This document shows, piece after piece, positions 813 through 26,052 of a stretch of 46,572 bases of DNA; within the stretch, counting starts at the first letter, position 1; every line of letters starts with the position of its first letter. The position numbers were made by a program, and so were the translations under genes. The notes beneath the pieces are model-generated. The model searched no databases. It was not told the DNA's origin and was given only the letters and a program-made list of their open reading frames with translations. Source of the DNA: a virus (lineage: Duplodnaviria > Caudoviricetes); IMG/VR virus record IMGVR_UViG_3300027653_000019, positions 1 to 46,572 of that record, one strand, 5' to 3'.

Positions 813-1214
813 TCAGTCGATACGACTAGACACGTGCCCGATCACGTAGTTCATGCCTAGCCCGGCGGCCAGGAACCGCCACACCGCCAGGGTAGCGGGC
901 CACCGCCGCGCCACCAGGTAGGACGTGATCGCGGCGAACCCGACCCAAGTGCCGACGCAGTAGGGGCAGTCCAACCCGGACACCAGCTTCGACCGCCACC
1001 CGTGGTCCGGGGAGAAGTCGGTCGGGACCGCCACACGCTCCAACCGTCCCCCCACCCACTGCGTCTGCTCCCGCGTCGGGGCCTCACGTTGTCGCGCCCA
1101 CTCTCGTGCGGGGTCGGCTATGAGCCAGCCGCCGAGGGTGTCGGATGTGAGGAAGCGGGTCGTGCGGGCGGTGGCGGCGAGGATGAGGGTGGCGTCTGTG
1201 GGTTTGATGGCCAT
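813..1214 (-). CDS. DUF1360-like membrane protein
   Basis: Hydrophobic segments, RFLTSD and CPYCVGTW motifs; sits just upstream of the portal. Confidence 0.75.
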   Translation of the reverse strand: MAIKPTDATLILAATARTTRFLTSDTLGGWLIADPAREWARQREAPTREQTQWVGGRLERVAVPTDFSPDHGWRSKLVSGLDCPYCVGTWVGFAAITSYLVARRWPATLAVWRFLAAGLGMNYVIGHVSSRID

Positions 1215-1221
1215 GCGTGGC

Positions 1222-1234
1222 ACCGTACTACGTA
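1222..1234 (-). promoter_or_regulatory. Putative leaderless late promoter (CGTAG-TACGGT, 7 nt before ATG)
   Basis: Shares the 10-mer TACGTAGTAC with 14267-14276; the gene has no SD. Confidence 0.45.
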
Positions 1235-1278
1235 GCCATGTTTTCGTGCGGGATGTGGGGGGGGGTGGCTGTGGGTGT

Positions 1279-1458
1279 TTATTCGTTGTGCCATTCGTGT
1301 TCGGTGTCGCATGTGGGGCAGGCCCAGGTGCCGGTGTGGCCGTGGATGGTGATGTCGTGGTCGTTGTCGTAGCCGCAGTGGCAGGTGACGGGGGCGGTGA
1401 TGGTGTAGTCGTCGATGCCGCTCCCGGTCATGGGCAGGCCGTCGTAGTAGAGGCTCAT
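1279..1458 (-). CDS. Small Cys/His-rich protein (CHC...CPTC)
   Basis: ATGA overlap with upstream gene; MSLYYDGLP... Confidence 0.7.
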   Translation of the reverse strand: MSLYYDGLPMTGSGIDDYTITAPVTCHCGYDNDHDITIHGHTGTWACPTCDTEHEWHNE

Positions 1459-2030
1459 CGGTTCCCACCACCTTCGAGCAGCGCCAGCACCGCATCGGCG
1501 GTGTTGAGTGCGTCGCGGCAGGTGGCGCAGTTCTCGGGGTCGAGGCTGTCCTCGTAGCCCTGCGGCACTTCCCAGCCGTCGTGGTGGATGACGGCGGCGA
1601 TCTGCTCGCGGGTGGGGCGGGTGCGGGCCGTGGCGAGCAGGCCGGCGTCCGCGAGCGCCTGGGCGATCTCCTGCGGGCTGCTCGCACCGCCGTAGCACGC
1701 ATCATCAATGACCCGTGCCGCGTCCTCGGTGGTGGCGGTGGTCGTCTCGGCGCGGCAGTCGTCCTGTCGCGTGCCGCAGCCGGTGCAGTAGGAGTGCATG
1801 GCCCCGCAGCCGCAGATGGTGCGGTCGAAGTCGCCACTGTCGCACTCGTGCGCGGTGGTCGTCTCGGCGCGGGCAGCGGCCCACGCTGGCTCTGGGGGCG
1901 TAGTACCAGCTGCGGTGAGTCCGCAGCGATTACACCAGGGCGGCTTCCCGTCGCGGTGCTGTACCGGCTTGTGGTCGGGGCACTGCCCGGCGCGGGCGTT
2001 GTCGGTGACGGACAGGTCGGCGGCGGTCAT
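1455..2030 (-). CDS. Modular accessory protein (MTAAD family), Cys-rich modules
   Basis: ATGA overlap; shares linker peptides and DNA with 2697..3407. Confidence 0.8.
   Translation of the reverse strand: MTAADLSVTDNARAGQCPDHKPVQHRDGKPPWCNRCGLTAAGTTPPEPAWAAARAETTTAHECDSGDFDRTICGCGAMHSYCTGCGTRQDDCRAETTTATTEDAARVIDDACYGGASSPQEIAQALADAGLLATARTRPTREQIAAVIHHDGWEVPQGYEDSLDPENCATCRDALNTADAVLALLEGGGNR
1611..1661. repeat. 51-bp perfect direct repeat, copy 1 (copy 2 at 2721-2771); encodes QALADAGLLATARTRPT
   Basis: ggtggggcgggtgcgggccgtggcgagcaggccggcgtccgcgagcgcctg at both sites. Confidence 0.95.
1714..1754. repeat. 41-bp direct repeat, 1 mismatch (copy at 2869-2909; partial copies near 1851, 2390, 2530); encodes RAETTTATTEDAAR
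   Basis: Direct comparison of the sequences. Confidence 0.9.
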
Positions 2031-2218
2031 CGGGCGTCTCCTTCCTGAACGCACTCAGGGCACAGGTCTGTGGTGTCGGTGGACGTCCAGCCCGGCGCGC
2101 GGGTGGTGGCGGTGATCCGCTCGGCATCGACGCTGTGGGCGGACGTCTCGTAGTAGTCGACGTCCCAGTTGTCGCAGTCGTCGCCGTCGCAGTGGAGGGT
2201 CGGGATCGTGGAGCGCAT
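2027..2218 (-). CDS. Small Cys-containing protein (PTLHCDG...APGW..TD..D.CP), paralog of 24716..24895
   Basis: AAGGAG SD before ATG at 2218; paralogy. Confidence 0.8.
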   Translation of the reverse strand: MRSTIPTLHCDGDDCDNWDVDYYETSAHSVDAERITATTRAPGWTSTDTTDLCPECVQEGDAR

Positions 2219-2220
2219 GG

Positions 2221-2700
2221 TCAGTTCTCCTTGGTGGTGTCGGTGGGGGCCGTGGCGAGCAGGCGGCGCAACTCCTCCCGACACTGAGCAACGGCAGACA
2301 CGCGGCCCTGGTAGTACCCGGCGTACTTGTCCGCGAGCGGTTGCTCCGTCTCCCAGCGCTCGAACCACCGGGCGTCGAGAGTCTGAATGTCCTCGGTGGT
2401 CGTCTCGGCGGGTTCGTGGGGCACGTTCCCCAGGTCGTCGGCTGGCCCTTCCTGGGAAGCCGCGCAGTTGCTGCTGCCGTCGTCGGCGATCCCCTCAGGG
2501 TCGAGGGGTAGCCCGCAGTGGACGCAGACGGTGGTCGTCTCGGTGACGGACAGGCGGTCGGCGGTCAGGGCGGCACGAAGGCGCTCAATCTCGGCTCGCA
2601 TGGCCTCCTCGTCCACCACGTAGCAGCGCCCGCAGACGAACTCCTCATCGCCGGGGGTGTGGTCGCTGTACTCGCCCTGGCCGCTGATGCACTTGCTCAT
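2221..2700 (-). CDS. Modular accessory protein (ends LLATAPTDTTKEN)
   Basis: SD and ATGA overlap at 2697-2700; carries the shared linkers. Confidence 0.8.
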   Translation of the reverse strand: MSKCISGQGEYSDHTPGDEEFVCGRCYVVDEEAMRAEIERLRAALTADRLSVTETTTVCVHCGLPLDPEGIADDGSSNCAASQEGPADDLGNVPHEPAETTTEDIQTLDARWFERWETEQPLADKYAGYYQGRVSAVAQCREELRRLLATAPTDTTKEN

Positions 2701-2727
2701 GAGGTCTCCTTGGTGGTGTCGGTGGGG
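2694..2727. repeat. Gene-junction repeat, 34 bp identical to 3742-3775; 23-bp core also at 2226-2248; contains PTDTTKE codons, AAGGAG SD and ATGA stop/start
   Basis: tgctcatgaggtctccttggtggtgtcggtgggg. Confidence 0.95.
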
Positions 2728-3407
2728 CGGGTGCGGGCCGTGGCGAGCAGGCCGGCGTCCGCGAGCGCCTGAGCGAGCCTGCGTTGGGAGTTGCGAGACG
2801 ACTCCGCCAGTTCCTCCCACGGCTTGCCCTCGGTCAGCTTGAAGCCGGTGCCGGACTCGTACAGCACTCGTGCCGCGTCCTCGGTGGTCGCGGTGGTCGT
2901 CTCGGCGCGTTGGGGGACGTAGTTCACGCCCTGCCAGTTCAGGACCGAGCCGTCCTCGGAAACGGTCAGGCCCGCAGGCGTCTCGGCGCGGCCAGCGGCC
3001 CACTCGGCACCGGCCACGAATGCGGCCTGACTGTGCTCCCGGACTGCACCGGTTGGGTAGGTCAAGCCCCGGTCGGCTACGTCGCTGGGGTAACGCCGCT
3101 CGGCCTCGGCGCGGGCGTCGTCGGTGACGGACGGGCGGGACTGCTCGCCGGGGATGTAGACGACTCGCACGCTTTTGGCGGCGGAGGCGATTTCTGTTGA
3201 TGTCCACCAGCCCTTGCCGATGAGTAGGCCGGTAGTTAGCGCTGCCCAGGGGCCGTCGCTCGCTCGGCAGAGCACAACGGGGGCGTCGCCCTTCTCGTCG
3301 TAGGGGTCAACGATGACGCTGCCAACAGGCAGCGCGTCAAGCTGCTCGGCGGTGGTGATGGTGTCCCCAACGCGGGGCGTGACGGTCGGGCGGTCAGCGG
3401 CGGTCAT
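2697..3407 (-). CDS. Modular accessory protein (MTAAD family)
   Basis: ORF track; ITTAEQLDALPVGSVI module plus the shared linkers. Confidence 0.85.
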   Translation of the reverse strand: MTAADRPTVTPRVGDTITTAEQLDALPVGSVIVDPYDEKGDAPVVLCRASDGPWAALTTGLLIGKGWWTSTEIASAAKSVRVVYIPGEQSRPSVTDDARAEAERRYPSDVADRGLTYPTGAVREHSQAAFVAGAEWAAGRAETPAGLTVSEDGSVLNWQGVNYVPQRAETTTATTEDAARVLYESGTGFKLTEGKPWEELAESSRNSQRRLAQALADAGLLATARTRPTDTTKETS

Positions 3408-3748
3408 CGGGCCACACCCGTCAGGAAGCGGACAGCCTCATCAAGGGCCGCCGGCCGCTGCGAGGCGAGCCAGTCAGGCAGGTCTGAACTGAGCGAACCG
3501 AACCCGACGCCAGACAGGCCGCCCTGGGGTGCACGGGTCTTGGGGCCGAACACCTCGACGTGCTCGAACGTCCGGTCCCACTGGCGCGAGCGCTCGTCCT
3601 CGGTGCGAGCCCACTGAGAGCCTCGGCTGATCGTCCAGCGAGCCTTCTCGGGGCGGAAGTAGCCCGTGGTGCCCCGGAGTTCGGCGGGGCCATGGTCGAG
3701 CGTCGTGAGGATCTCGACGCTGACATGGTGCGCGACGGCGGTGCTCAT
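3404..3748 (-). CDS. Hypothetical protein
   Basis: SD and ATGA overlap inside the junction repeat; MSTAVAHH... Confidence 0.75.
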   Translation of the reverse strand: MSTAVAHHVSVEILTTLDHGPAELRGTTGYFRPEKARWTISRGSQWARTEDERSRQWDRTFEHVEVFGPKTRAPQGGLSGVGFGSLSSDLPDWLASQRPAALDEAVRFLTGVAR

Positions 3749-4200
3749 GAGGTCTCCTTGGTGGTGTCGGTGGGGGCCGCCGAGAGAGCGGCGCGGAGTC
3801 GGATGACGGCGGACTGGTAGGCGAGGCAGCGAGAGCACTCGCCAGCGTTGGTGCACCGGTACGCCTCGGTGCACTCCCACTCGTCGGCGAGGGCTTCGAT
3901 GGCGGCGAGGCGGGCGGCCAGCGCGTCCCGTTCCTCTTTCAGAAACGAGAGGGCGTCCCGCCTGTTCATGTTCTCGGTGCCCTCCTCGTCCAGCGCAGCG
4001 ATGAGGCGGAGGATCGTGGCGGGGTTCGCCGCAGCAATAAACTCGGCGGCCTCGGGGAAGCCATGCAGTGGGAGCGCGCGGGGCGGGTTGAGCATGTACA
4101 CCCATGCCTCTCCGTCGTCCCGGCCGGTATCGGCGGCCCACTCCCGCGACTCGGCGGGCACCGCCTCCGCGAGGCGTGCGAGGTCATCGGCGGCGGTCAC
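3745..4200 (-). CDS. Ead/Ea22-like modular protein (MTAAD family)
   Basis: AAEFIAAANPATILRLI motif of Ead/Ea22-like proteins followed by a coiled coil; ends PTDTTKETS. Confidence 0.7.
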   Translation of the reverse strand: MTAADDLARLAEAVPAESREWAADTGRDDGEAWVYMLNPPRALPLHGFPEAAEFIAAANPATILRLIAALDEEGTENMNRRDALSFLKEERDALAARLAAIEALADEWECTEAYRCTNAGECSRCLAYQSAVIRLRAALSAAPTDTTKETS

Positions 4201-4394
4201 TGGTCGTCTCCGTTCGTGAGTTTGTCGAGCTGGTGCTCGGCGCGGCGCAGCCTTGTCCGGGCGTGAGCGATTTGCCGCCGGATCGTGTCGCGAGGCAGGT
4301 CAGCTATGTGGGTGGCGATGATCGCCTCGGCCGTAAGGTCCGCCGCTGCTTTGAGGTGGCGGCGTAGGCGGTCTAACCGGTCAGTAGCGGTCAT
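4197..4394 (-). CDS. Hypothetical helical protein (MTATDRL...)
   Basis: Overlapping stop/start at both ends. Confidence 0.7.
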   Translation of the reverse strand: MTATDRLDRLRRHLKAAADLTAEAIIATHIADLPRDTIRRQIAHARTRLRRAEHQLDKLTNGDDQ

Positions 4395-4633
4395 CGGTTC
4401 CCCCGTTCCTCGGCGCACCGGTGGCATGCACAGTTGCGTGCCAGTCGGCAATCACGGCATAGGCGCGGGTTAGCGCCATCGGGCCACTCGTGGAAGAGCA
4501 GTTCGTGGGACCGGATCGCGTGGAGCAAGATGCGATGTTCGCCAATGACGCCGCACTCTTGGCATTGCACGCGCCAAGGGCCCTCACCGACGATCCCCTC
4601 AACACTATTCGGCAGGGTAGGTAGCGGTGTCAT
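4391..4633 (-). CDS. Small Cys-rich (Zn-binding) protein
   Basis: CxxC motifs; ATGA overlaps. Confidence 0.65.
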   Translation of the reverse strand: MTPLPTLPNSVEGIVGEGPWRVQCQECGVIGEHRILLHAIRSHELLFHEWPDGANPRLCRDCRLARNCACHRCAEERGNR

Positions 4634-4845
4634 GACAGGTCCTCCGTGAACCCGGCGGCGCGGGCGACCTCGTGGAAGGTCGCGCCCCCTTGGAATGCCT
4701 CGCGGATGGTGGCGGTGCAGACGGTGAGGAGGTGGGGGACGCTTGCCGCGTTGGGGTTGCGTTGGGCGGCGTTACGGTAGCGGTTACTGGCGTGGGTGAG
4801 GCGACGGAGTGTGGCCACAACCTTGTCGTGGTTCACGGTGTCCAT
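4630..4845 (-). CDS. Hypothetical protein, possible C-terminal HTH
   Basis: AFQGGATFHEVARAAGFT resembles an HTH. Confidence 0.55.
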   Translation of the reverse strand: MDTVNHDKVVATLRRLTHASNRYRNAAQRNPNAASVPHLLTVCTATIREAFQGGATFHEVARAAGFTEDLS

Positions 4846-5129
4846 CCCCGCTCGGTGAGGTCTAGGACGATGTTCCATGCAATCTCCTCGGCGTCGTGGT
4901 CGACGTACCGGTCGGACAGGTGGGTTTTGATTGTGTTGACGGCCTCGACGGCGCGTGGGTTGGCGGTGATGTCCGCGGCGAGTTCACGCTCGGCGTGGCG
5001 GCGGGCGGAGTAGCCGAGGAGGGTGTTGACCTCGTTGGCGAGGATGATGCCGTCGGGGCCCGAGTTCATGAGGCGGGCGACGACACGGTTCACGAGTTCC
5101 AGCGGCACGTGCTCGGTCCAGGTGGTCAT
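4833..5129 (-). CDS. Hypothetical protein (MTTWTEHV...)
   Basis: ATG at 5129 coupled to the upstream mini-ORF. Confidence 0.7.
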   Translation of the reverse strand: MTTWTEHVPLELVNRVVARLMNSGPDGIILANEVNTLLGYSARRHAERELAADITANPRAVEAVNTIKTHLSDRYVDHDAEEIAWNIVLDLTERGWTP

Positions 5130-5170
5130 GGGGTCCTCGGGGGTGTGTTGTTGTGGGGGTGGTCGGTCAT
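5126..5170 (-). CDS. 14-aa mini-ORF MTDHPHNNTPPRTP
   Basis: Directly follows a promoter/RBS cassette; ATGA-coupled to the next gene. Confidence 0.5.
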   Translation of the reverse strand: MTDHPHNNTPPRTP

Positions 5171-5231
5171 GGTGGTCCTCCCTCTCCGTGTGTGTACTAT
5201 TAGTACCGCGTAGGGGGTGGGGGTTAGGCAA
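5171..5231 (-). promoter_or_regulatory. Early promoter+RBS cassette (TTGCCT-18-GGTACT, degenerate -10)
   Basis: AGTACACACACGGAGAGGGAGGACCACC-ATG leader. Confidence 0.7.
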
Positions 5232-5454
5232 GATTGATGCGCAACACGCACCCGCGCGGATACGTGCCCTCATCCGGCCTGTCGGGGTAATCAAACGCAT
5301 ACGCCCCCTGCGTGAGATTCCAGAAGGCCCGCACAGCCTGGTCATAGGTTGGCGCGATGACCTCCGCCCACCCGTCGGGGTGGGCCACCCACCCAAGCAC
5401 GGGGTGCAGCTCGCTGGCGTACTGAACACCGAAGGTGAAATACACGGTAATCAT
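5224..5454 (-). CDS. Hypothetical phage protein (YFTFG...HP..GW..V.A)
   Basis: ORF track; ATGA overlap. Confidence 0.75.
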   Translation of the reverse strand: MITVYFTFGVQYASELHPVLGWVAHPDGWAEVIAPTYDQAVRAFWNLTQGAYAFDYPDRPDEGTYPRGCVLRINLA

Positions 5455-5579
5455 GGCCGGTAGTCCTCCAACCCCATTAGGGCCTCACGGTCGGGGTGAG
5501 TGCGGCTGGTGTCACGGCGGATGAGCGCGAGGATCGCGGCGACCACCACGGCCCCCGCGACGGCTAAGGCGGGCCTCAT
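5451..5579 (-). CDS. Small membrane protein
   Basis: MRPALAVAGAVVVAAILALIRR; ATGA overlap. Confidence 0.6.
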   Translation of the reverse strand: MRPALAVAGAVVVAAILALIRRDTSRTHPDREALMGLEDYRP

Positions 5580-5707
5580 AGCAGGCCACCCCATACCCAT
5601 GCCCCGGCCCTCAGCAGCAGGCCGAGCACGATCCATAGCACCGTCACGCCCAGCGCCCCGGCGATGACACCGACGGCAATGATGCCCGCCCGCTCGCCCG
5701 CGCTCAT
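5576..5707 (-). CDS. Small membrane protein
   Basis: Manual translation MSAGERAGIIAVGVIAGALGVTVLWIVLGLLL... Confidence 0.6.
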   Translation of the reverse strand: MSAGERAGIIAVGVIAGALGVTVLWIVLGLLLRAGAWVWGGLL

Positions 5708-5730
5708 GCGCGCCCACGGCTTGCGCGTGC

Positions 5731-6153
5731 TCACTGGTGACCCCGGCACGCGTCCCGGCTCGCGGGGTAGTCGGAGGTGGTGATGAGCGCGTTAGCTGCG
5801 TTCATTTCACTAAGGATCGCCTCTAGCTCAACCTGGATCGCGTCCATCGTGGCGTGATCCCACGCGGCGGCGGCCTCTACGGCATCCCCGGCGAGGGTGA
5901 ACCCGTGGGACATGGTTTCGATCATCGTCGCCGAGGTGAGGATGAGGTCGTCGGCGGCGGTGAGGGCGTCAAGGCATTCACTGGGGAGCGTGGCGACTTC
6001 GACGGGGACCTCGACGGGGACCTCGACCTCTACGGTGTCGGTGACGACCCGTTCGGTTGTGTCGGCGCTCGCGGCCCCAACGGTGATACCGAGGACGAGG
6101 GCGACGGCCCCGGTGAGGGGGAGGGCCCAGCGGCGTTTAGGTTTCGTGGTCAT
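5731..6153 (-). CDS. Secreted or membrane-anchored helical protein
   Basis: Basic N-terminus plus hydrophobic segment, VEVPVEVPVEV repeat; GAAAGGA SD. Confidence 0.75.
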   Translation of the reverse strand: MTTKPKRRWALPLTGAVALVLGITVGAASADTTERVVTDTVEVEVPVEVPVEVATLPSECLDALTAADDLILTSATMIETMSHGFTLAGDAVEAAAAWDHATMDAIQVELEAILSEMNAANALITTSDYPASRDACRGHQ

Positions 6154-6381: not shown

Positions 6382-6834
6382 TCAGTACTCCACCCGTTCC
6401 GTGTTCGACACCCACGCATTGAAGGGGGCCACCCCCGCGGGTCGGGCATCCCGCTCCAGCCGTAATGGGGCCACCCCCCGGACCGCATCCCAAAACACCC
6501 GATCATCGAACCCCGCCGCCGCCGCATCCTCCGGCATGGCTGCATAAACAACCCGGTCCAACCTCGCCCACATCGCGGCCGTAAAGCACATCGGGCACGG
6601 GTAGGTGGAGGTGTATAGCACTCCCCCCGACAGATCATGGGTGCCTAATCCGGCGGCGGCGGCACGTATCGCCATCACCTCGGCGTGCGCGGTCGGATCA
6701 TGGGAGGCCGTCACCCGGTTAGTGGCCTCAAACAGGCGGCCGTGCATGTCAATGACCGCACCAAACGGGCCACCCCCACCCCGCGCCGCCTGTACGGCGA
6801 GGTCGATAGCCCGACCAAGCGGATCATCCCTCAT
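6382..6834 (-). CDS. guaD: Nucleobase deaminase, guanine deaminase GuaD-like (CDA fold)
   Basis: PFGAVI, HDPTAHAE, PCPMC zinc motifs and the C-terminal AAGFDD..F motif of Bacillus-type GuaD; ATGA overlap at 6831-6834. Confidence 0.85.
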   Translation of the reverse strand: MRDDPLGRAIDLAVQAARGGGGPFGAVIDMHGRLFEATNRVTASHDPTAHAEVMAIRAAAAGLGTHDLSGGVLYTSTYPCPMCFTAAMWARLDRVVYAAMPEDAAAAGFDDRVFWDAVRGVAPLRLERDARPAGVAPFNAWVSNTERVEY

Positions 6835-7442
6835 GCCGTGAGCCGGGCGCGCCGGGCACGGCGGGCGTCGGGGTTTAGGGTGAAGCGGAAGACGGTGGCC
6901 CACAGGAGCCCGCCCAGGGTTTTCGTTGCGGCCTGGGTTGCTACCAGCGCCAGCAGTGCGGCCCAACCGCCGACACCCGTAACACCGAAGGCAACTACCG
7001 GGAAGATGAGGGAGTCGGCCACCGCCCCGGCAACGTTCGACGCGTTAGAACGGACCATCCACCGGCGCCGGAACACCCCCTGAAACACGAGGGTCTCTAC
7101 GATGGAGGAACCCGTGAGGGCGGCAACGGATGCGATGGCGATCATCCCGGCTGACTGGTCCACCGCGTAGGCGAGGACACCGGCGGCAGCAATCATTACC
7201 AGCATGCGAGGCCAGAACGATCCGCCCCGGGATGCCCAGACGTCGTGAAGGTAATCGCGGGTAACGAGGACGACACCGACGGCGACGAATGCGGTAACCG
7301 GGAGGAACCATGGCCCGAAGTGGGCGATAGCGAGGTTGGCTAGGGCCATAACGGTGACGAATATGCCGATGGTGGCATATTCGATGATGCGGTCGGTGCG
7401 GAGCCATGCGGGGCGAATGCGGGGTGAGGGGCGAAGGTCCAC
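6831..7442 (-). CDS. VUT-family (YhhQ-like) putative queuosine-precursor transporter
   Basis: Multiple TM helices; LAN, RD.LH, RSNASN..GA..DS.IF..VAFG motifs; AAGGAG SD. Confidence 0.75.
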   Translation of the reverse strand: MDLRPSPRIRPAWLRTDRIIEYATIGIFVTVMALANLAIAHFGPWFLPVTAFVAVGVVLVTRDYLHDVWASRGGSFWPRMLVMIAAAGVLAYAVDQSAGMIAIASVAALTGSSIVETLVFQGVFRRRWMVRSNASNVAGAVADSLIFPVVAFGVTGVGGWAALLALVATQAATKTLGGLLWATVFRFTLNPDARRARRARLTA

Positions 7443-7478
7443 GGGGGCGCTCCTTGACGAGTTATGCCGGGGTCTCGG

Positions 7479-7528
7479 CGGGGCGCGCCGTGCGCCCCGG
7501 TTCGCATCCTAGTAGGACGGAACCGGGG
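7479..7528 (-). promoter_or_regulatory. Two overlapping, mutually exclusive hairpins upstream of the VUT gene
   Basis: ccccggttc(7495-7503)/gaaccgggg(7520-7528) and cggggcgc(7479-7486)/gcgccccg(7492-7499) share 7495-7499. Confidence 0.5.
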
Positions 7529-7537
7529 ATGTATGGG

Positions 7538-7645
7538 TTAGCGGCACTCGACGCAAAGGTTGAGGGTCTCGCCGTCCAGCTTGACGGTGATTGTCCCGGT
7601 GAAGTCCTCGCAGCCGTCGCAGAACATGGTGTCGGTGTGGTTCAT
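7538..7645 (-). CDS. 35-aa Zn-ribbon micro-protein (CDGC...CVEC)
   Basis: Manual translation MNHTDTMFCDGCEDFTGTITVKLDGETLNLCVECR; cassette upstream. Confidence 0.75.
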   Translation of the reverse strand: MNHTDTMFCDGCEDFTGTITVKLDGETLNLCVECR

Positions 7646-7704
7646 GGTGGTCTCCCCTCGGCGTGTGTGCTATCAGTATAGCTAAGGGGTGGGGGGTGTG
7701 GCAA
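7646..7704 (-). promoter_or_regulatory. Early promoter+RBS cassette (TTGCCA-18-TATACT)
   Basis: Motif family. Confidence 0.8.
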
Positions 7705-7709
7705 CGCCC

Positions 7710-8630
7710 TCACAGCCAGGGATGTGTATCCCCCCTCATCGTCCCCATCATGAGGTGCTGGGCGTAAGCGGAGTTCGCGCTGACCCCATCGGCCCCCCTC
7801 CTGGCCGCGTTCAGGTCCCCGCCCTTTACGTGGTTATCAACATCGAGCCACATGTCCGGGGGGAAGGACGCCACGCTAGTCAGCATTGCAAACGACCTCC
7901 ATGACGGCATCCACCTCCGATTGGTTACCCATGAGGACGAGTCGGACGACCCCCGGTGCGCCATGGCGATGAGGTTCTGATTAGGTGTCGCCCCAAGGAG
8001 GTGGGTCCATAGGTATGGGTATGCGCGCGCCCGTTCCGCCGCGGTCCACATGAGCCGCAGCCGTACCGGCTGGGATGCCTTGACGATGTTCCCGACGCAA
8101 ATACGGTCATAGCCGCGGGCTAGCGTGTCGTAGTAGTCCCACCCGTCGAGCAGGGGGTGATACACCGGGATTGGGACGATCCCGAACTCCTCCTCGATCC
8201 TCGCCCGCGTCCTCGGCTTATGACCCATCCCGCCCTGGTCAAGCTCGATGGCGCCCCACAGCCGGTCGCCGAACCGTGTCACGACCTCGCCGTAGCCGTC
8301 CCATAGTCGGTCGAACCCGTCAATCTCCTCGGGCGGCATTGATAGGCCAACGTCGTGTGATGTGTTGTGCTTCCGCGCATGCTCCATGGCGAGGTTGAAG
8401 ATGCCGGAGTCCAACAGCACGCGGCGCGTGTCGAGCAGTCGGTCGAACCGGTCCCAGGACGCCCGTGACCTCAGCTCGTTAACCGCGACAAGCACCTGCG
8501 GGTGGGGGGTTGCTAGTAGGGCGGTAGCGTCCCCCGCCAGAAAGTAGATGTAATGCTCGTCGGGGTCGAATACGTCCCCGGTTGTGGCCTTGACGCCCCG
8601 GGGGAGGTTCCGTTCAGCGGGGGCGGTCAT
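7710..8630 (-). CDS. TGT-fold (queuine tRNA-ribosyltransferase/DpdA-like) base-exchange enzyme
   Basis: LLDSGIF, IELD, IPVYH, ICVG, HLLG and SDSSSW motifs in TGT TIM-barrel order. Confidence 0.7.
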   Translation of the reverse strand: MTAPAERNLPRGVKATTGDVFDPDEHYIYFLAGDATALLATPHPQVLVAVNELRSRASWDRFDRLLDTRRVLLDSGIFNLAMEHARKHNTSHDVGLSMPPEEIDGFDRLWDGYGEVVTRFGDRLWGAIELDQGGMGHKPRTRARIEEEFGIVPIPVYHPLLDGWDYYDTLARGYDRICVGNIVKASQPVRLRLMWTAAERARAYPYLWTHLLGATPNQNLIAMAHRGSSDSSSWVTNRRWMPSWRSFAMLTSVASFPPDMWLDVDNHVKGGDLNAARRGADGVSANSAYAQHLMMGTMRGDTHPWL

Positions 8631-9412
8631 TTGATTCGCTCCACCGTCTCGTCAGGGAACGCGCTGCGGTGTTTGTCGATGAGATGCCCCGCCAGGTAGG
8701 TGTTCGGCTGCACCAGCAGCATGGTTTCGTCCCGCGCCCGATCCGACATGGTGAGGTAGGGGTCGGGGTAGGGGCAGAACAGTACGCCCTCCGTGAGGTA
8801 GTCCCGCCACAGCGGCCACTCGGTGAGGAGCTTGGCGACCACGAGGATGTGCCTGCCGATGTGCCACACCTCGTGGGCGGTGACGGCCTGGCGTGGTTCG
8901 GCCATGGTCACGTCCACGACCTGAAGTAGCTCCCCGGTTGTGGGGGCCCGTGCCTCGTCATCTGTCTCGCCGTACTCCTCCATAATCCGGTCGAGCCCGT
9001 GGCCCTCCTGTTCGATGAGGTCGCGGAGGTTGTCGGCATCGTCGTCGTCGTACAGTGTGCCGTCCATGCTGTCCATGGCCATGAGTAGGTCCAGGATGGT
9101 CCGGTTGTCGTTGGTGGCAATGTCGGAGGAGCGGTTGTCGGCGAGCATGATTTTTATGCCGGTCTCGTCATCCACGTCCCTCCAAATGACGGGGATCTCG
9201 GTTAACCCGGCCTCCAGCATGGCCAGGTAGCGGTGGTTGCCGACGAGAATGTGGCCGGTGGACCGCTGGGCGATCACGGGGGTGTACACGCCGTGGTGTT
9301 TCATGGACGTGTAGATCGCGCCTATATCGCCCCGCCTGGGGTTATCCGGGTGGGTTCGCAGCTTGGTCGGCGTCACGTATTCGACCGCCAGGTTAGTGGT
9401 GTCGGCCTTCAT
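8627..9412 (-). CDS. ParB-N domain protein 2, with a degenerate MTase-linker-like C-terminus
   Basis: HPDNPR, ILVGNHRY, IMLADNR; EVWHIGRHILV resembles the linker of ParB-methylase fusions; ATGA overlap. Confidence 0.8.
   Translation of the reverse strand: MKADTTNLAVEYVTPTKLRTHPDNPRRGDIGAIYTSMKHHGVYTPVIAQRSTGHILVGNHRYLAMLEAGLTEIPVIWRDVDDETGIKIMLADNRSSDIATNDNRTILDLLMAMDSMDGTLYDDDDADNLRDLIEQEGHGLDRIMEEYGETDDEARAPTTGELLQVVDVTMAEPRQAVTAHEVWHIGRHILVVAKLLTEWPLWRDYLTEGVLFCPYPDPYLTMSDRARDETMLLVQPNTYLAGHLIDKHRSAFPDETVERIK
9144..9184. repeat. 41-bp identical block within the ~300-bp duplicated ParB-N coding region (partner 11542-11582)
   Basis: agcatgatttttatgccggtctcgtcatccacgtccctcca at both sites. 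Confidence 0.95.
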
Positions 9413-10071
9413 TGATTGTCCCCCTGTTGGTGATTCCGGGTGCCGGTGAGTTGTAGGACCTCGGGCCTGTACAGTGGCGCCCCATCGAAGGATGGTTCCC
9501 ACGTCGCAAGCCGGTCGTCCTGGGGGATGACGCGCACGTCCCCCGATGCGACGGCATCCGCGGCCGCGGCGAGCATGTCCAGCCCTATTGGTGATAGATA
9601 TTCGCGCCACAGGTGCCTGTGATCGATGCCGGGCGGTATGACAACGTGCCTCTGGTCATGCAGGGGGCCGCCGTCCACGCGGTCGGTTAGGTGGTAGATC
9701 GATCCGCCCACAACCCTCTCCCCCATCCGGGCCTGCCAGCGCACGGCGTCCCGACCGCGGTGTAGCGGCAATAGGGATGGGTGGTATCCCATCGCGTATG
9801 GGGCGCGCGCCCGGGTGCGTGCGCCAATGAACGCGTGAGAATGTGCGGTAAGGATTAGCTCCGTCCCCTCGGGGACGGCCTCCGGGGTGAGGGTGGAAAC
9901 GACGGTGAGGGGCGCTCCCCCGTATATAGCCCACAGTGCAAGAAGGTCCGCCTTCCCCCGTCGCCCCCTTTCGGGGGCGGCGACACCTACGATCCGGTGG
10001 CCGCGGTCGATGAGCCGCTCCGCCGCTTGCCTGCCGAACCAGCCGGACCCGGCCAGGAAAATACGAGTCAC
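9409..10071 (-). CDS. Formyltransferase (Fmt/PurN fold)
   Basis: GYHPSLLPLHRGRDAVRW and GGSIYHLTDRVDGGP motifs. Confidence 0.88.
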   Translation of the reverse strand: MTRIFLAGSGWFGRQAAERLIDRGHRIVGVAAPERGRRGKADLLALWAIYGGAPLTVVSTLTPEAVPEGTELILTAHSHAFIGARTRARAPYAMGYHPSLLPLHRGRDAVRWQARMGERVVGGSIYHLTDRVDGGPLHDQRHVVIPPGIDHRHLWREYLSPIGLDMLAAAADAVASGDVRVIPQDDRLATWEPSFDGAPLYRPEVLQLTGTRNHQQGDNQ

Positions 10072-11249
10072 CCCGAGACCTTTCCGTAGTAGCGGAACCC
10101 CTGCACGGCCCGGAGGTGTCCCCCGTAGCCGACGCCTACACCCCCGGAGTCGAGCAACGAGTCGCGTGACCTTTTACGGTTCACCCCGTGAAGGACACCG
10201 CTGATCTGACGCCATGCGGGCGAGCGGCGCAGCCCCGCACACAGCCCCGGATGGGAGGTGTGGAAAACGGTGGTCATTCGCCTCGGCAACACGCCGTGGC
10301 CCTCTAGCTGCATTTGGGCTACGTGGTTGAGGAACCTCATACCAACCCCGGCGCCCTGCCATTCCGGTAGGACGACCATACGGCAGGCACGGGCCTCTAC
10401 CGCCCACACGCGGCGGCCCCTGGCGTTCCTGGCGGCCACGCTGCTCGTGCCCATACCGAGGTGCGCTACCGGCTCGCCGTCAACGAAGGCGACATAACAT
10501 TTTGCGCCGATCATGGGTCCCGAATCTAGATAGTGATGTGGCTTGAAAAATGGCCATAAGTCCCACCCACCCACCCGGATTTCCACGTTGATCCTCGGTC
10601 GGGACCACGGCCTTTCCCCCTCCTGTTCTCGTGCCTCGCGCGTCTGAAAGCGGTGGGTCGCCGTGTCGTATACCCAATCCGGTTCGACCCAATCGAGAAT
10701 GTCGTAATGGCAGGACAGGAGGACGGCCTTACCCCGGGTCCGTCGCCACGCCTTGGCGAACGCCCCGGCCCCTACCCTCGCGATCTGTCGATCCACTACG
10801 GAGGTGAACTCGTCGAGTACAACCCGGGGGGGCTGTTCCGCGAGGACGCGGGCGAGGTCGGCGCGGAATCGTTGGCCGGTGGACAGCACCCGGTAGGGCC
10901 GTAGCCAGGTGGGCACATCGCCGAGCCCGGCGGATGATAGGGCGCCCGTCACGGCGTCGAAGTCCCCGCCGGGGGCGATGGCGTCAACGATGGGGGCGTC
11001 CTCGGGCCACCCGTCAGGCTCATAGAAGGCCCCCCCTCCCCATAGTGCCCGGCCTATGGAGGACTTACCGGACCCGGAGGGGCCGACGATGACCCCGATA
11101 GACCAGTCGCCGTCGAGGTCCACGGCGAGGTTGGCGTTGAGGGTAAAGCGGGTCGCCTGCTCGTCGGTGGCGTTAAACAGGGACTTGACGCGGTTGGCGC
11201 GGTAGGACTGTGCCGGGGGGACGGATTGGTCGATGCGGATAGTGGGCAT
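10068..11249 (-). CDS. ABC-type ATPase fused to a Mom-like GNAT acyltransferase
   Basis: GPSGSGKS, LSTGQ, VVLDEF; C-terminal HHYL and RMVVLPEWQGAGVG (acyl-CoA binding). Confidence 0.85.
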   Translation of the reverse strand: MPTIRIDQSVPPAQSYRANRVKSLFNATDEQATRFTLNANLAVDLDGDWSIGVIVGPSGSGKSSIGRALWGGGAFYEPDGWPEDAPIVDAIAPGGDFDAVTGALSSAGLGDVPTWLRPYRVLSTGQRFRADLARVLAEQPPRVVLDEFTSVVDRQIARVGAGAFAKAWRRTRGKAVLLSCHYDILDWVEPDWVYDTATHRFQTREAREQEGERPWSRPRINVEIRVGGWDLWPFFKPHHYLDSGPMIGAKCYVAFVDGEPVAHLGMGTSSVAARNARGRRVWAVEARACRMVVLPEWQGAGVGMRFLNHVAQMQLEGHGVLPRRMTTVFHTSHPGLCAGLRRSPAWRQISGVLHGVNRKRSRDSLLDSGGVGVGYGGHLRAVQGFRYYGKVSG

Positions 11250-11810
11250 TTAAACGGTCACCACCCGGCACTCGAACCCCTGCTCGCGCAGCGTCTCGTA
11301 TGTGGCCTCCTGGTGTGCCTCGTCGGTGCATATAACGGTGACGGCGTATTGCTCCCGGTAGTTGTCGCTATCGGGGGCGGTTAGGAGGTCCGCGGACCCG
11401 GGTGCGCCGAGTAGTTCCTGTGTGAGATTGTCTAGGTCATCCCCGTCGTATAAGGAGCCCTCCAGGTCGGGCAGCGCTTGCAGGAGGGTGAGCATAGCGG
11501 ACTCGTCGTTGCTCGCGAGGTCGGACGCACGGTTGTCGGCCAGCATGATTTTTATGCCGGTCTCGTCATCCACGTCCCTCCAGATCACCGGAATCTCCGT
11601 CATCCCGGCCTCTAGCATCGCCCGGTAACGGTGGTTGCCGACGAGAATGTGCCCGGTGGACCGCTGCGCTATCACAGGCGTATAGACGCCGTGATGTTTA
11701 ATCGACGTGTAGATCGCCCCCACGTCACCCTGCCGCGGGTTGTCGGGATGGGTTCGCAGCTCGGTGGGTTCGACGTACTCCACCTGCAAGCTCGTTGTGT
11801 CCGCTTTCAT
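11250..11810 (-). CDS. ParB-N domain protein 1 with a small C-terminal domain
   Basis: Same ParB-N motifs as 8627..9412; ATGA-coupled to terminase. Confidence 0.85.
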   Translation of the reverse strand: MKADTTSLQVEYVEPTELRTHPDNPRQGDVGAIYTSIKHHGVYTPVIAQRSTGHILVGNHRYRAMLEAGMTEIPVIWRDVDDETGIKIMLADNRASDLASNDESAMLTLLQALPDLEGSLYDGDDLDNLTQELLGAPGSADLLTAPDSDNYREQYAVTVICTDEAHQEATYETLREQGFECRVVTV

Positions 11811-14276: not shown

Positions 14277-14642
14277 CTACAGATCGGTCATCTGCATCAC
14301 GTCGCTGGTGTCACCCTCGGCGGCCGCGTACAGCAGGCGGGCGGGTAGGGACACCTCGGCGTGGCCCTCGTAGCGGTGGCAGCAGTTGTCGAACTCCCAA
14401 CCCGAGCCGGTGAGCACTTCGATCATGCCCAGGCTGTCCTCGATGATGGAGCCGATGGGGAGGGCGGCGAGGTCGTCCACGGTCGTGATGACGCGGGGCT
14501 GGAACAGGGGCAGGACGGCCTCGACTATCTTCTTGCGGAGTCGGCCGGTGTCCCTCCCGATCACGGCCACGGGGTCGGGATGGTTCATGGCGTTGAACAG
14601 GACGGCGCCGACGGCGCGGTCCACGGCGTCTCGCTTGATCAT
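14277..14642 (-). CDS. Hypothetical protein with an ITT..L.ALP.GS.I module
   Basis: ATGA overlap, GAGG SD; module shared with 2697..3407. Confidence 0.75.
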   Translation of the reverse strand: MIKRDAVDRAVGAVLFNAMNHPDPVAVIGRDTGRLRKKIVEAVLPLFQPRVITTVDDLAALPIGSIIEDSLGMIEVLTGSGWEFDNCCHRYEGHAEVSLPARLLYAAAEGDTSDVMQMTDL

Positions 14643-14941
14643 TCGGGCACCTCGGGGGGGTTCAGGCAGTCGGCGCAGTGGCGGGACTCGGCCCACCCGA
14701 GCGTCGTGACGTGGGTGGGCGTGACGGGCTTGTGGCAGCGCTGGCAGGTGGGCGGGGGCCAGGTGAGGAGCCCGGCGTGAGAGAGCGCTTCGGCGACGTG
14801 ACGGTGGTATTGCTTCCAGAAGCCGTGTGCGTCCCGTCCCCACTCGGGTTCCCAGGAGCACGCGCAGATGACCTCCGGCGTGCGGAGGAGTTGGTGGTGG
14901 GTTAGCACGGCGGCGGCGAGGTCGATCATGGGGTCCGGCAT
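14639..14941 (-). CDS. Cys/His-rich hypothetical protein
   Basis: GGAGGAGG SD before MPDPMIDL; HVAEALSHAGLL resembles the AQALADAGLL linker. Confidence 0.75.
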   Translation of the reverse strand: MPDPMIDLAAAVLTHHQLLRTPEVICACSWEPEWGRDAHGFWKQYHRHVAEALSHAGLLTWPPPTCQRCHKPVTPTHVTTLGWAESRHCADCLNPPEVPE

Positions 14942-14987
14942 GGCGGCCTCCTCCCTACGTGTACGGCCAGCATACGGTCGGGGCGGT

Positions 14988-15179
14988 TCACGTTCGGCTC
15001 CAGGGTCCGGTGTCATCGTGGTAGCGGATGCGCTGGCGCATCGTGGTCGGACGGCCGGGGTGGACGCGGAAGAAGTGATCGTCGGCCCAATCCGCCACTT
15101 CGTCGGGGGACGCGAGCCAGAGCGACAAGCCGTGGCAGTAGTCGCACCTGCCCCGCCAGTCCATTACGGCGGGGATCAT
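14988..15179 (-). CDS. Small Zn-binding protein
   Basis: CDYC...H...H; ATGA overlap. Confidence 0.6.
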   Translation of the reverse strand: MIPAVMDWRGRCDYCHGLSLWLASPDEVADWADDHFFRVHPGRPTTMRQRIRYHDDTGPWSRT

Positions 15180-15698: not shown

Positions 15699-16967
15699 TC
15701 ACCGACGGAAGAACGCCCCATCGACAAGCGCCTGCTGCAACGACCGAACCGTGTACGGCCCGAACACGCCGTCGACCGCGTGCCCCGTGTACCCGCGGTC
15801 GCGCAGCCACTGCTGCAACGAACGCGTCGTCCAGTAGCCCCACCGGCCGTCGATTGCGTGCCCCCGCTGTCCCTGCGCACGCAGGAACCGTTGGAGCGAG
15901 GTGATCGAATATCGCCCGAAGGACCCGTCCAGTGCGTGGGTCTTGTAGCCGTTATGCCGCAGCACGTTCTGCAAGGCGATCTTGGTGTAATACCCGAAGT
16001 CGCCGTCTACGTTGACGGTCCAGTCGGTGTGCGGCACCCGCCCTGACCGGCGACCCGATGGGGGGGCGGTCGGGCGCGTGTAAATGCGCTGCCCGTGGTA
16101 GTCCTCGGTCCACCCGCGCACGGTCATCTGCCACGACCTCGTGAGGTCGGCGATGCGGACCTTACCAATCGCGCCGCCCGGGCCGACCGAGGTCGAGATA
16201 CAGTAGCCGCCACCAACACTCAGTGCGACGTGACCGAGGCCGTGGTTCCGGTTAGCCGGATGCAGCTCCCAGAAGATCGGGACACCGGCGGGGGCGTTGT
16301 TGATGTCGCGGTGCCGGTACCTTGTCCGGTTCCACGCAATCGTCGCGGACGGGTTGCGGGCGGGGAAGCCGAAACATTCCCGCACGAACTTCTCGCACCA
16401 CCCGCCGTAGTTGCGGTTACCGATCATGCTCTGGGCGTGAGCGATACGCTGACTCACCGATCTTGCCATGCTCTCCTCCTCGATAGGGTCCGTGGCGGCC
16501 ACGAACGCCTCCCAGCCGCCGCGGTCACGCAGAATGGCCGGGCAGTCCTTGCCGTTGAAGTGATGGTGCTGGACGACGGCACTCCGGCCGAGACCCGTCG
16601 CGGCCCGACGCATCCGAAACCATCTCACGGCGAGAGCGAGGGCCGCGTCATAGTCGCCGTCGGCGTTGACGCACATTTCGTATGCCTCGCCGTTGAAGTT
16701 GCCGCCGTCGGGGTCGTCGCCGTCCCCGGCGTGCCAGCAGCGCACATCCGACTCGAACGAGCGCACGACCTCCCTGTCGTCACCCTGGACGTGCCAGGAG
16801 GCGTTGCGGACGTTGCCGCTGGCCTGGAGGCGGGCGTGCGCGTCGGCGTTCGCGCCGACACGCGGGTTAGCGGTTTCGTGGAACACGAGGAAGCGGACGG
16901 GGTTGCCCCGTCCGTAGGTTTTCGCCTCGATCACGTCCTCGCCCGCGAGGGCCAGCCGTTCCATCAC
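15699..16967 (-). CDS. Endolysin: Amidase_2 + CHAP/NlpC-like peptidase + PG-binding repeats
   Basis: HETAN, ASWH, WHAGDG, KDCP; GWCEKFV...GHVALS; four DG.(F/W)G....LQ repeats. Confidence 0.92.
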   Translation of the reverse strand: MMERLALAGEDVIEAKTYGRGNPVRFLVFHETANPRVGANADAHARLQASGNVRNASWHVQGDDREVVRSFESDVRCWHAGDGDDPDGGNFNGEAYEMCVNADGDYDAALALAVRWFRMRRAATGLGRSAVVQHHHFNGKDCPAILRDRGGWEAFVAATDPIEEESMARSVSQRIAHAQSMIGNRNYGGWCEKFVRECFGFPARNPSATIAWNRTRYRHRDINNAPAGVPIFWELHPANRNHGLGHVALSVGGGYCISTSVGPGGAIGKVRIADLTRSWQMTVRGWTEDYHGQRIYTRPTAPPSGRRSGRVPHTDWTVNVDGDFGYYTKIALQNVLRHNGYKTHALDGSFGRYSITSLQRFLRAQGQRGHAIDGRWGYWTTRSLQQWLRDRGYTGHAVDGVFGPYTVRSLQQALVDGAFFRR

Positions 16968-17212
16968 CCGTCCTTTTTTTTCGTGGCCTTCTTCACCGGC
17001 GCGGGCTTCTCAGCCGCCGGTTCCTCCGTAGCCGTCTGCTTGTCGCCACCGTCGTCCACCTCATCGTGCCGCTCAACCTTCTCGTCGAATGATTCGATGC
17101 TATCGAGGTCGATAACCTCTACGTCGGGGGCCTGGTCCTCCTCCGGTGGGGTGGGGACGGCATCTTCGATGACTTCCGCGTCCTCTTCCGCTACGGGCTT
17201 GTTGTCTGCCAT
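16964..17212 (-). CDS. Small acidic protein with a basic tail
   Basis: GAAAGG SD; ATGA overlap with the endolysin. Confidence 0.7.
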   Translation of the reverse strand: MADNKPVAEEDAEVIEDAVPTPPEEDQAPDVEVIDLDSIESFDEKVERHDEVDDGGDKQTATEEPAAEKPAPVKKATKKKDG

Positions 17213-17248
17213 GAGGGTTCCCTTTCGTTGGTGTTCCTAACGATCCCA

Positions 17249-17638
17249 TCATTCCGTGTCGGGCGATAGTGCGTCCTCGATGAGTTCGGCGGCGTCGGTG
17301 AGTGCGGCGGCCTCGGTGAGGTTGGTTGCCCGGGTGGCGTTGGCCCGTAGCGTGCGCACAGCCTCCTCGACGCGGGTGATCGTCGGGTTAGCGCGGGGCC
17401 GGTACGGGGCCTCGTTGTCGGCGTGGTCGGGGTGGGCGTAGACGTGGAAGGTGCCGCGGCGTTGGGTGAGGCGGGCGATGTGGCCGTCGCGGTGCAGGGC
17501 GGTGAGGGCGCCGGAGGTGGCGCCTTGGGAGAGATTGAGGTCGGCGGCGACCTCCCGGGATGTGGCGCCGCGCGGGCCTACGCGGGCGAGGTGGCGCAGG
17601 ATGCGGCGGCGGCGGTAGGGCAGTGTCATGGGGGTCAC
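17249..17638 (-). CDS. Winged-HTH DNA-binding protein
   Basis: GATSREVAADLNLSQGATSGALTALHRDGHI. Confidence 0.8.
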   Translation of the reverse strand: MTPMTLPYRRRRILRHLARVGPRGATSREVAADLNLSQGATSGALTALHRDGHIARLTQRRGTFHVYAHPDHADNEAPYRPRANPTITRVEEAVRTLRANATRATNLTEAAALTDAAELIEDALSPDTE

Positions 17639-17997: not shown

Positions 17998-18185
17998 GGC
18001 TGCTCCGTGGGGAAGATTTCGGCGAGGACGTATCCGCGGCCCCCGATGATGAGGGTCTTGTGGTCGTGGTATTCACGTTCGTAGTAACGGTATTCGGTGG
18101 CGGCGACGGTCCAGTGGTCGGGGCCGGTGACGTGGCGGTCCTCGTAGCCGGTGCGGTGGTGGTGGCGGATGGTGATGTCCTGCAT
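17994..18185 (-). CDS. Small early protein
   Basis: Cassette upstream. Confidence 0.75.
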   Translation of the reverse strand: MQDITIRHHHRTGYEDRHVTGPDHWTVAATEYRYYEREYHDHKTLIIGGRGYVLAEIFPTEQP

Positions 18186-18630: not shown

Positions 18631-18633
18631 CTG

Positions 18634-25401: not shown

Positions 25402-26052
25402 TTAGTTGTGGTGCTCTTCGGGTGTGTCGTCCTGGTCCTGCTCGTGGCCGAGGGCCTGCTCTGCGGCCTCGCGGGCGAGGAGGTGTTGGAAGTCGCGGAC
25501 CTGTTCGGCGTCGGCCTGGCGGATCGGGTAGCCGTAGTCGGACTCGAACCGGCGCCCGATTTCGGTGGGGTTGAGGCCGGACTTTTGGGTCCAGTCGTGG
25601 AGTTCGCGGCGGGCCTGGGTGGCCTCCCGCTGTTCCCGTTCGCGGCGGTGGTGGGCCTCGGTGGCGATGGAGCCGTCGTCGTCGTCGTCGGTGACGATGC
25701 CGGTCATGGCGCCGAGGAGGTAGCGGCGGGCGTAGGTGATGCTGGAGCCGATTTCCTGGGCGGTGTTGCCGGGGATGGGGAGGGCGCCCTCGATCCTCTC
25801 GCCGCTGGTGTGGGCGAGGATGCCGACGAGTTCGTAGCCGCGTTCCGTCTGGCGGGGGGTGGTGATGAAGGCCAGGCCGTGCTTCGTCAGCAGGGGGATG
25901 GCGGCCTCGGTGACGTCCACGAGGTCTGCGTAGGTGTACTGGTATGACCCGCCGGACTTGGTGGGGACGTTGGCGGTCTTGGTCTTGGCGACCTTGGGGA
26001 GTTCCATCTGGAACGTGACGAGGGCGTCGAACAGGTTGGCGTGCTCGGCCAT
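25402..26052 (-). CDS. erf: ERF-family single-strand annealing recombinase
   Basis: YTYADL, QEIGSSITYARRY, DDDDDG. Confidence 0.93.
   Translation of the reverse strand: MAEHANLFDALVTFQMELPKVAKTKTANVPTKSGGSYQYTYADLVDVTEAAIPLLTKHGLAFITTPRQTERGYELVGILAHTSGERIEGALPIPGNTAQEIGSSITYARRYLLGAMTGIVTDDDDDGSIATEAHHRREREQREATQARRELHDWTQKSGLNPTEIGRRFESDYGYPIRQADAEQVRDFQHLLAREAAEQALGHEQDQDDTPEEHHN

Follow-up and report, generated by a model that had tools for sequence, protein, structure and literature searches.

Ordered in-frame DNA linkers as likely joints for module exchange in small accessory genes of a tailed phage

We analysed an array of small accessory genes in the virus record IMGVR_UViG_3300027653_000019; the window is this whole record (G000), a linear stretch of 46,572 bases from a high-GC tailed phage, estimated to be 66% complete. 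Variable protein modules in the array are separated by short coding DNA segments, here called linkers, that recur in a set order. We consider it likely that modules of about 40 residues, lying between ordered in-frame linkers of 15–51 bp, are exchanged by homologous recombination at the linkers. Shuffling at repeat joints is already known in principle; recombinational shuffling of modules is well supported here, and its new element is the ordered multi-linker grammar. A search of mainly open-access literature found no paper that describes this family, nor any that reports accessory genes of actinophages with an ordered, multi-slot grammar of in-frame linkers.

The 'recer' work is reportedly that of de Chateau and Bjorck in 1996, as a citing paper has it. 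According to passages of PMC3467074, multiple 15-bp direct repeats in an intronless albumin-binding protein gene were proposed as domain-shuffling joints. The repeatable linker of the window, T, also has as its core a 15-bp in-frame direct repeat, but recer concerns a bacterial surface protein and one repeat type, whereas here a phage family carries six or more ordered linkers and ~200 module types, apparently exchanged between unrelated genomes. Domain movement (DoMo) is described for specificity genes of type I and IIG restriction-modification systems in PMC3077401, and movement of target recognition domains in type III mod genes in passages of PMC3467074. There, as here, variable domains between repeated conserved coding segments shift in position, gene, locus and number, probably by homologous recombination; DoMo, however, concerns enzymes whose function is known and a single class of domain (DNA target recognition), while the window has unrelated micro-domains without assigned function, and its junctions also span gene boundaries. 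The array shares with recer and DoMo the in-frame direct repeats that flank variable domains, the occurrence of the same domain with different neighbours and in varying number (34 of 42 shared module types; 0–6 T copies; locus L167), and a conservation of DNA beyond protein need (codon identity of 0.93 against 0.45–0.51 expected and 0.69–0.80 in a control).

The PeSL cassettes of T4-type phages, found in a hyperplastic region, are described in passages of PMC4122927 (see also PMC2839356). PeSLs and the window linkers are alike in being short conserved sequences that serve as exchange points between otherwise unrelated sequence, but PeSLs lie between genes, consist of a promoter and a stem-loop terminator and exchange entire genes, whereas the linkers are coding and in frame and would swap protein parts; neither a promoter or minus-strand terminator consensus nor a hairpin was found on the linkers. 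Short conserved module boundaries used by phage recombinases are also known as the lambdoid 'linker' or boundary sequences, the glycine-rich motifs of T-even gp38 and the mosaic Ead/Ea22 genes. Shuffling of gp38 is mentioned in passages of PMC4122927. The window resembles these systems in its conserved module-boundary stretches, and its gene E weakly matches Ead/Ea22. Integrons are variable-length arrays of exchangeable whole-gene cassettes with an integrase and hairpin-forming attC sites. Our locus is likewise a variable-length cassette array with a repeated joint, but neither an integrase nor attC hairpins were found and its cassettes are parts of one reading frame; whole genes are bounded only by the P, M and GNR junctions listed below.

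Linkers, genes and module strings

The array comprises nine small overlapping genes on the minus strand (4633–1279); a DUF1360 gene and the portal gene lie just downstream of it. Its linkers are the following, where G001 denotes a second, 59-kb virus record.

2020..2035, minus strand: linker M, start junction (MTAAD); copies at 3397–3412 and 4190–4205
1988..2017, minus strand: linker S (SVTD.ARA); copies at 3107–3136 and 2540–2554 (fused to T)
1735..1755, minus strand: linker T (RAETTT), the repeatable joint; copies at 1852–1872, 2394–2410, 2529–2543 and 2890–2909, with a shorter copy at 2979–2998
1714..1734, minus strand: linker D (ATTEDAAR); copy at 2869–2888
1611..1661, minus strand: linker R, 51 bp, identical at 2721–2771; partial copy at 2247–2264
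2226..2252, minus strand: linker P (PTDTTKE and the next gene's ribosome-binding site); copies at 2705–2727 and 3753–3779
1477..1501, minus strand: linker Z (ADAVLALL), near the C-terminus; 25 of 25 positions identical in G001

The first-pass annotation had numbered these blocks L0 to L5. We rename L0, L1, L4 and L5 as M, S, R and P, use T for the core of L2 and L3 and D for the second half of L3, and add Z, which that annotation lacked. The blocks lie where it had placed them: L0 agrees at 16 of 16 positions and L4 at 51 of 51, with a single mismatch in L1 (of 26), L2 (of 25) and L3 (of 41); the L5 copies are identical over 23, 27 and 34 bp and the GNR junction at 12 of 12 positions, and L5 does carry the ribosome-binding site of the following gene. 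A further L0 copy at 4190 (MTAAD at 4200) is present, with three mismatches. L2, L3 and the supposed L1 variant near 2540 exist, but they share one 15-bp core (ETTT frame); this core occurs five times (1736, 1853, 2394, 2529 and 2891), so the set is ordered and one of its members repeats. All linker copies are direct and in frame, and inversions were not seen. The interval 1279–4633 holds 14 exact repeats of at least 16 bp, which is above chance: when the window is cut into 12 slices of this size, 11 have none or one, and the twelfth, with seven, holds a separate promoter repeat.

The genes between which the linkers are distributed are listed below in the direction of reading.

4633–4391 and 4394–4197, minus strand: two upstream small genes of 80 and 65 residues, joined by a GNR-stop/ATG junction
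3745..4200, minus strand: gene E, 151 residues, weakly Ead/Ea22-like, with its own linker set (AANPAT at 3996–4057, DALAARLAA at 3892–3922, LRAALSAA at 3776–3802) and M and P junctions
3404..3748, minus strand: gene D, 114 residues, no internal linkers; a whole-gene cassette from P to M junction, with orthologues in G001 and in a further virus record, L159
2697..3407, minus strand: gene C, 236 residues; M, phrog_2021 module, S, module, T, module, T, D, YESGTGF module, R, P
2221..2700, minus strand: gene B, 159 residues; Cys module, fused S/T, VCVHCG module, T, module, partial R, P
2027..2218, minus strand: gene F, 63 residues, Cys-containing, between P and M junctions
1455..2030, minus strand: gene A, 191 residues, true ATG at 2030; M, S, CPDHKPVQ Cys module, T, CDSGDF Cys module, T, D, module, R, module, Z; protein P0059
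1279..1458, minus strand: final gene of the array, 59 residues, Cys/His-rich, after a GNR-stop/ATG junction

Four neighbouring genes had been said to share the ordered blocks. Genes A and C do carry the full series, but gene B has only part of it, and gene E shares no more than the junctions at its start and end. Gene E does match Ead/Ea22, but weakly (PF13935 in Pfam, residues 51–105, E 0.0098, 16.9 bits against a gathering cut-off of 27), so that the gene faintly resembles the family in sequence and by the cut-off is not a member. This Ead/Ea22-like gene, seen in the window, L151, L025, L022, L159 and L167, has a repeatable linker of its own (AARLAAVEALA frame), in tandem at 5100–5730 of L151, and it swaps tails with the S–T family in L159.

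The linkers recur in relatives with other modules. A first set of 104 sequences was drawn from two protein searches and six proteins translated from loci. Sixty-eight of them have at least two of S, T, D and R and were counted as family members; they hold 259 segments (median 39 residues) of 158 types in 64 distinct strings. Modules mostly keep their own slot, and 34 of the 42 types that occur in more than one string have different neighbours. Four four-gamete sets, forming three independent cycles, span the T/D joint, and such combinations need recombination. The hits of a profile search fell into 180 clusters when grouped at 50% identity; 94 of these had an E value of 1e-10 or lower, and 150 of the 180 were listed. 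In the enlarged set, counted after removal of six proteins (the window's P0059 and five isolate-phage translations), linkers are present in 108 of 204 proteins, with 105 strings, 214 module types and 0–6 T copies per protein, and the order S-T-D-R-Z/P is retained in 97 of the 108. Median module length is 39–42 residues, in frame inside one open reading frame. P0003 and P0004 join the N-terminal half of gene C to gene B modules, P0052 and P0061 join the gene B start to a gene A cassette, P0060 is gene A with a different tail, and P0002 is missing precisely the one cassette that two T linkers enclose. The proposal of the first-pass annotation that the linkers are recombination joints for modules is borne out by these changes of neighbours, by the four-gamete sets and by the frozen silent sites described below; relatives bear the same linkers with other modules. 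Where other proteins share near-identical tracts with genes A–C, the tract stops at a linker in 37 of 45 cases, against an expected 37%, or at 26 of 33 distinct positions (p 1e-6), which shows the exchanged units, as read from the proteins, to be bounded by linkers and says nothing on the crossover route.

Had genes A, B and C been simple paralogues that diverged between conserved motifs, the same linker order in A and C and the homologous edges found in three slots would follow, but we give this explanation almost no credence. The four-gamete sets contradict it, unless they are chimeras; the cassettes between T copies are unrelated (0 of 15 types); near-identical modules stand beside different partners and move among genes A, B and C; and some modules occur in isolated actinophages that lack these linkers.

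Frozen linker DNA and variable modules

Silent sites were compared over 14 loci, with duplicates and chance hits excluded. Where the same residue occupies the same linker position, codons are identical in 94% of pairs, and in 93% of 1758 codon pairs after copies picked by the search patterns are dropped; codon usage predicts 45–51%, and the control, gene D compared among the three of these phages that have it, reaches 69–80%. Codon pairs are not independent, so these figures are effect sizes. Of the three Thr codons of T, read from copies at 10 loci, one is always ACG (15 of 15), another always ACC (18 of 18) and the remaining one ACC with a single exception (18 of 19), and base changes in T are tolerated in an isolate genome. 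Modules vary mostly by synonymous change: this holds for 27 of 39 variants (43 distinct rows were shown for genes A–C, and four beside an insertion were set aside), and the D–R tract differs from that of L025 by ten synonymous changes and one replacement. Judged by these substitutions, the modules evolve as coding sequence. The frozen linker DNA is either selected for exchange or a by-product of frequent exchange.

Module relatedness was assessed with leave-one-out profiles against 50 shuffles. Homologous edges were found in 14 of 22 S–T types, 7 of 17 D–R types, 12 of 14 R–Z types and none of the 15 T–T cassette types, 10 of which have at least two Cys; after six residues were trimmed at each end, 6 of 21, 3 of 17 and 4 of 14 types kept them. 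The claim of unrelated sequence between linkers is therefore right for the T–T cassettes, but S–T, D–R and R–Z keep homologous edges, and homology between inter-linker segments, named beforehand as a sign of duplication and divergence, is found in part, in three of the four slots. These edges mean that protein-level selection contributes to linker conservation. In the AlphaFold model of gene A (mean predicted local distance difference test, pLDDT, 65; predicted template modelling score, pTM, 0.47), helices at residues 102–114, 120–129, 142–153 and 170–188 fall on linkers D, R and Z, and T lies in low-confidence unstructured parts. Going by this low-confidence model and the edges shared in the S–T, D–R and R–Z slots, the protein probably ends in a helical frame that carries variable loops and is preceded by a free string of cassettes.

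The same edges and modelled helices would also suit an account in which the linkers are kept as a helical protein scaffold, the modules are loops picked up through illegitimate recombination, and the DNA is alike owing to recent common ancestry or to passive gene conversion. We regard this as unlikely. Selection on the protein does not fix silent sites, yet the Thr codons of T are near-invariant; T lies in unstructured regions and ranges from 0 to 6 copies; and silent-site identity is higher in linkers than in gene D orthologues of the same genomes.

Among 86 relatives, just two Pfam domains scored above cut-off, HIT (P0021) and WDGH (P0156). A fused form of 588–2000 residues was not found, which is weak evidence. 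Look-alikes of type IIS restriction sites in T and P were rejected, as relatives are without them.

Linkers in unrelated genomes

A scan of metagenome contigs with the R pattern gave 16 loci: two in the window, one in its second assembly, three in G001, one chance match and nine with other modules; two of the nine, L020 and L027, share 98% identity. In its second assembly (L016), the window DNA is reproduced at 99.9% over 1–1733, across R. Locus L025 is 94% identical to the window over 2721–2909 and then 99.5% identical to G001 over 217 bp, and the switch falls inside R. G001 has no core genes in common with the window and encodes a family A polymerase, a helicase and an AAA_24 protein. Its linkers form two clusters, one of which contains T five times, and outside the array it matches the window only in one secreted-type protein and in collagen-like repeats. 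The secreted-type protein (22033–22839 in the window and 45969–46622 in G001; 36% identity; also in L025) has a signal-peptide-like start and a sortase-anchor-like end, and is the sole non-array gene common to the two backbones. After the same R linker, G001 has two alternative C-terminal modules, both of which are found again as tails in P0091 and P0096. Linkers are borne by two additional virus records, L159 and L164; L002, L018, L161 and L170 were dropped as chance matches to one pattern. A scan of viral contigs for the 15-bp core gave 120 loci; the 80 listed are all single matches, taken as chance, except those in G001.

Among 185,579 species genomes, strain Z1732 was the only match, and the R pattern itself had no match in this genome set. 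The strain is labelled Sanguibacter sp. in the title of its genome record and Pseudactinotalea sp. in a protein record. Linkers stand in two different regions of its complete chromosome; one region is present twice (99.4%), and by eye both look phage-derived. One gene carries a HIT domain between S and T (PF01230, 37.6 bits, cut-off 21.5), and another (L167) has the window's YESGTGF module after R, not before it. Because the linkers match in this one genome, the host lineage is probably Micrococcales. A 12.3-kb stretch near both chromosome ends (L151 and L152; 99.4% with indels) is a duplicated prophage or an untrimmed assembly overlap.

Since linkers occur in an unrelated phage backbone and in two Z1732 regions, assembly chimeras cannot explain all the combinations. 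The suspicion that the apparent recombinants are metagenome assemblies joined wrongly at short repeats has its grounds in the contigs: G001 ends in a 127-bp copy (58902–59028) of its own 176–302, the 217 bp shared with L025 are its first, so that this junction (the tail of the first gene) may be misjoined, and Logan contigs break at linkers. We nevertheless judge chimeras a very unlikely explanation. The second assembly agrees with the window across R; the copies of a shared module are as a rule set apart by silent changes (94% against L025), which marks them as alleles and not copied reads; the complete Z1732 chromosome gives further combinations, among them the YESGTGF module after R; and the members of the four-gamete sets come from several sources.

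Searches of an isolate phage collection (blastn and tblastn; 78 and 67 records, each covering at most 11% of the query) returned single modules only and no linker set. Such modules occur without these linkers in the isolated actinophages Magritte (gp237), Aflac (gp61) and Richie (gp49), so the module pool is wider than this linker dialect. Genes 47–50 of Arthrobacter phage Richie, considered as a further case and rejected, have similar peptide junctions, but their DNA repeats are just 76–88% identical, and frozen linkers are thus absent there. Other linker dialects surround the same modules in other lineages (P0077, P0078, P0079 and P0089; P0062 and P0082; P0054 and P0058), for example around a CxxHKPVQH module flanked by different conserved peptides. 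In the window, a second small-gene pair near the lysin gene (14277–15016) has a phrog_2021 module and an R-like peptide without frozen DNA linkers.

A population view was obtained from contigs of eight of 24 listed runs, from eight studies (run X1 may be the source sample), with depth summed over contigs. In run X13, summed depth is 36–703 on the Z, R, D/T, T and S bins and 0 on the module bins between them; loose contig ends fan from the linkers into unrelated sequence, and none of the listed pieces crosses the whole array. This pile-up shows many linker carriers with other modules, not live recombination.

Proposed mechanism and further observations

We propose that crossovers would take place between phages or prophages that find themselves in the same host cell, catalysed by any phage annealing protein (ERF in the window genome, probably a Sak4-type protein in G001) or by host RecA. 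Crossovers between like linkers would swap modules inside a slot, unequal crossovers between T copies would gain or lose cassettes, and the P, M and GNR junctions, with their ribosome-binding site and overlapping stop and start codons, would let whole genes swap too. As the linker is copied at every exchange, it would stay uniform across the pool. Our guess is that the products are most likely early host-interaction factors under diversifying pressure.

Passages of PMC3945230 put the minimal pairing segment at 23–27 bp for Red-beta and 31–34 bp for RecA and state that Erf protein matched Red-beta in efficiency; the exact linker lengths of 20–51 bp bracket both values quoted there. The window genome encodes an ERF-family protein, and Gam-like, RusA-like and SSB genes besides.

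25402..26052, minus strand: ERF-family single-strand annealing protein, candidate catalyst in the window genome

The first-pass annotation had the exchange driven by ERF, which is too narrow. PF04404 (ERF) matched in one of four virus records, the window alone, the other records being 19–77% complete; G001 gave no ERF match and has instead the AAA_24 protein, probably a Sak4-type annealase. ERF is a good candidate in the window genome and is not required across carriers.

A dedicated site-specific recombinase acting on the linkers, integron- or shufflon-style, would account for the near-invariant 15-bp core and the varying number of cassettes; the window record is estimated to be only 66% complete, and the related virus record G002 has a tyrosine recombinase. 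We hold such an enzyme to be highly improbable. PF00589 (tyrosine recombinase) had no match in the window record, at its 66% estimated completeness, in G001 or in G003, G002 being the one positive of four. All five linker copies examined fold no better than shuffles (z −1.5 to +1.2), so that none has an attC-like hairpin, and Rfam had no match in 1000–6000. The lack of a tyrosine recombinase and of hairpins argues against an integron, and the earlier term 'integron-like' is not supported. At least seven unrelated linker sequences are in use, T tolerates base changes in the isolate genome, and every copy is direct and in frame, with no inversions seen.

Homologous recombination at the linkers is the reading we prefer, and the following points weigh against it. 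The T core alone (15–21 bp exact) is below the quoted minimal pairing segment, and three slots have homologous edges. The tract-end test is partly circular, as a conserved linker stretches any shared tract to its far edge; in its DNA version, 5 of 17 ends lie at linkers and the rest outside the array or in C-terminal modules (inside the window array 4 of 5 are at linkers, the fifth in an S-like variant undefined in the script). Most recombinant proteins come from metagenome assemblies and are represented by their protein sequences, and the crossover evidence consists of assembled contigs, not raw reads. Pfam, PHROGs, ESM Atlas (best score 0.80) and Foldseek against viral models (nothing at E 0.001) gave a function for none of the window modules.

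A much broader interpretation, which we hold to be doubtful, is that the linkers are a selected, community-wide standard interface across unrelated phage families in one Micrococcales host lineage. Shared ordered joints would then take hundreds of micro-domains, even enzyme domains of HIT size, in frame, and the phages would thereby have a combinatorial repertoire of proteins for host takeover or against host defence, in effect exon shuffling in prokaryotic form, kept for the sake of evolvability.

The array offers a concrete route to an old question, the origin of the many short orphan accessory proteins of phages: joints, slots and module pool can be listed, and exchange would cross phage family lines within a host lineage. 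With the system on one complete bacterial strain chromosome, both recombination and function are open to experiment. Clustering by whole protein fails on such genes, since this one family splits into 180 clusters at 50% identity, and their linkers break short-read assemblies.

Other features of the window are the following.

801–1, minus strand: portal
13492–11807, minus strand: terminase
45803–43896, minus strand: major head protein
5170..5230, minus strand: copy of a promoter-like and ribosome-binding-site repeat upstream of the array

Between the terminase gene and the array, 6382–11810 holds two ParB-like genes (306 bp 82% alike), an ABC-ATPase/acetyltransferase-like gene, a formyltransferase, a tRNA-guanine transglycosylase-like gene, a domain of unknown function and a deaminase, a gene content that looks like a DNA-modification locus. 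In G001, a probable terminase gene (16605–19184) has a LAGLIDADG-like insert, possibly an intein.

The repeat copy at 5170..5230 is the probable promoter of the array operon. Fifteen copies of this repeat lie on the minus strand of the window (5207, 6352, 7680, 15625, 18220, 18607, 19245, 20423, 20869, 21715, 23163, 23481, 26329, 26525 and 26865), each preceding a small gene; a copy runs from sigma-70-like −35 and −10 boxes, with 17 bases between them, through an AC-rich leader to a ribosome-binding site and the ATG. It is a closer analogue of PeSLs than the linkers are and, by that analogy, may be a PeSL-like cassette joint at the level of whole genes.

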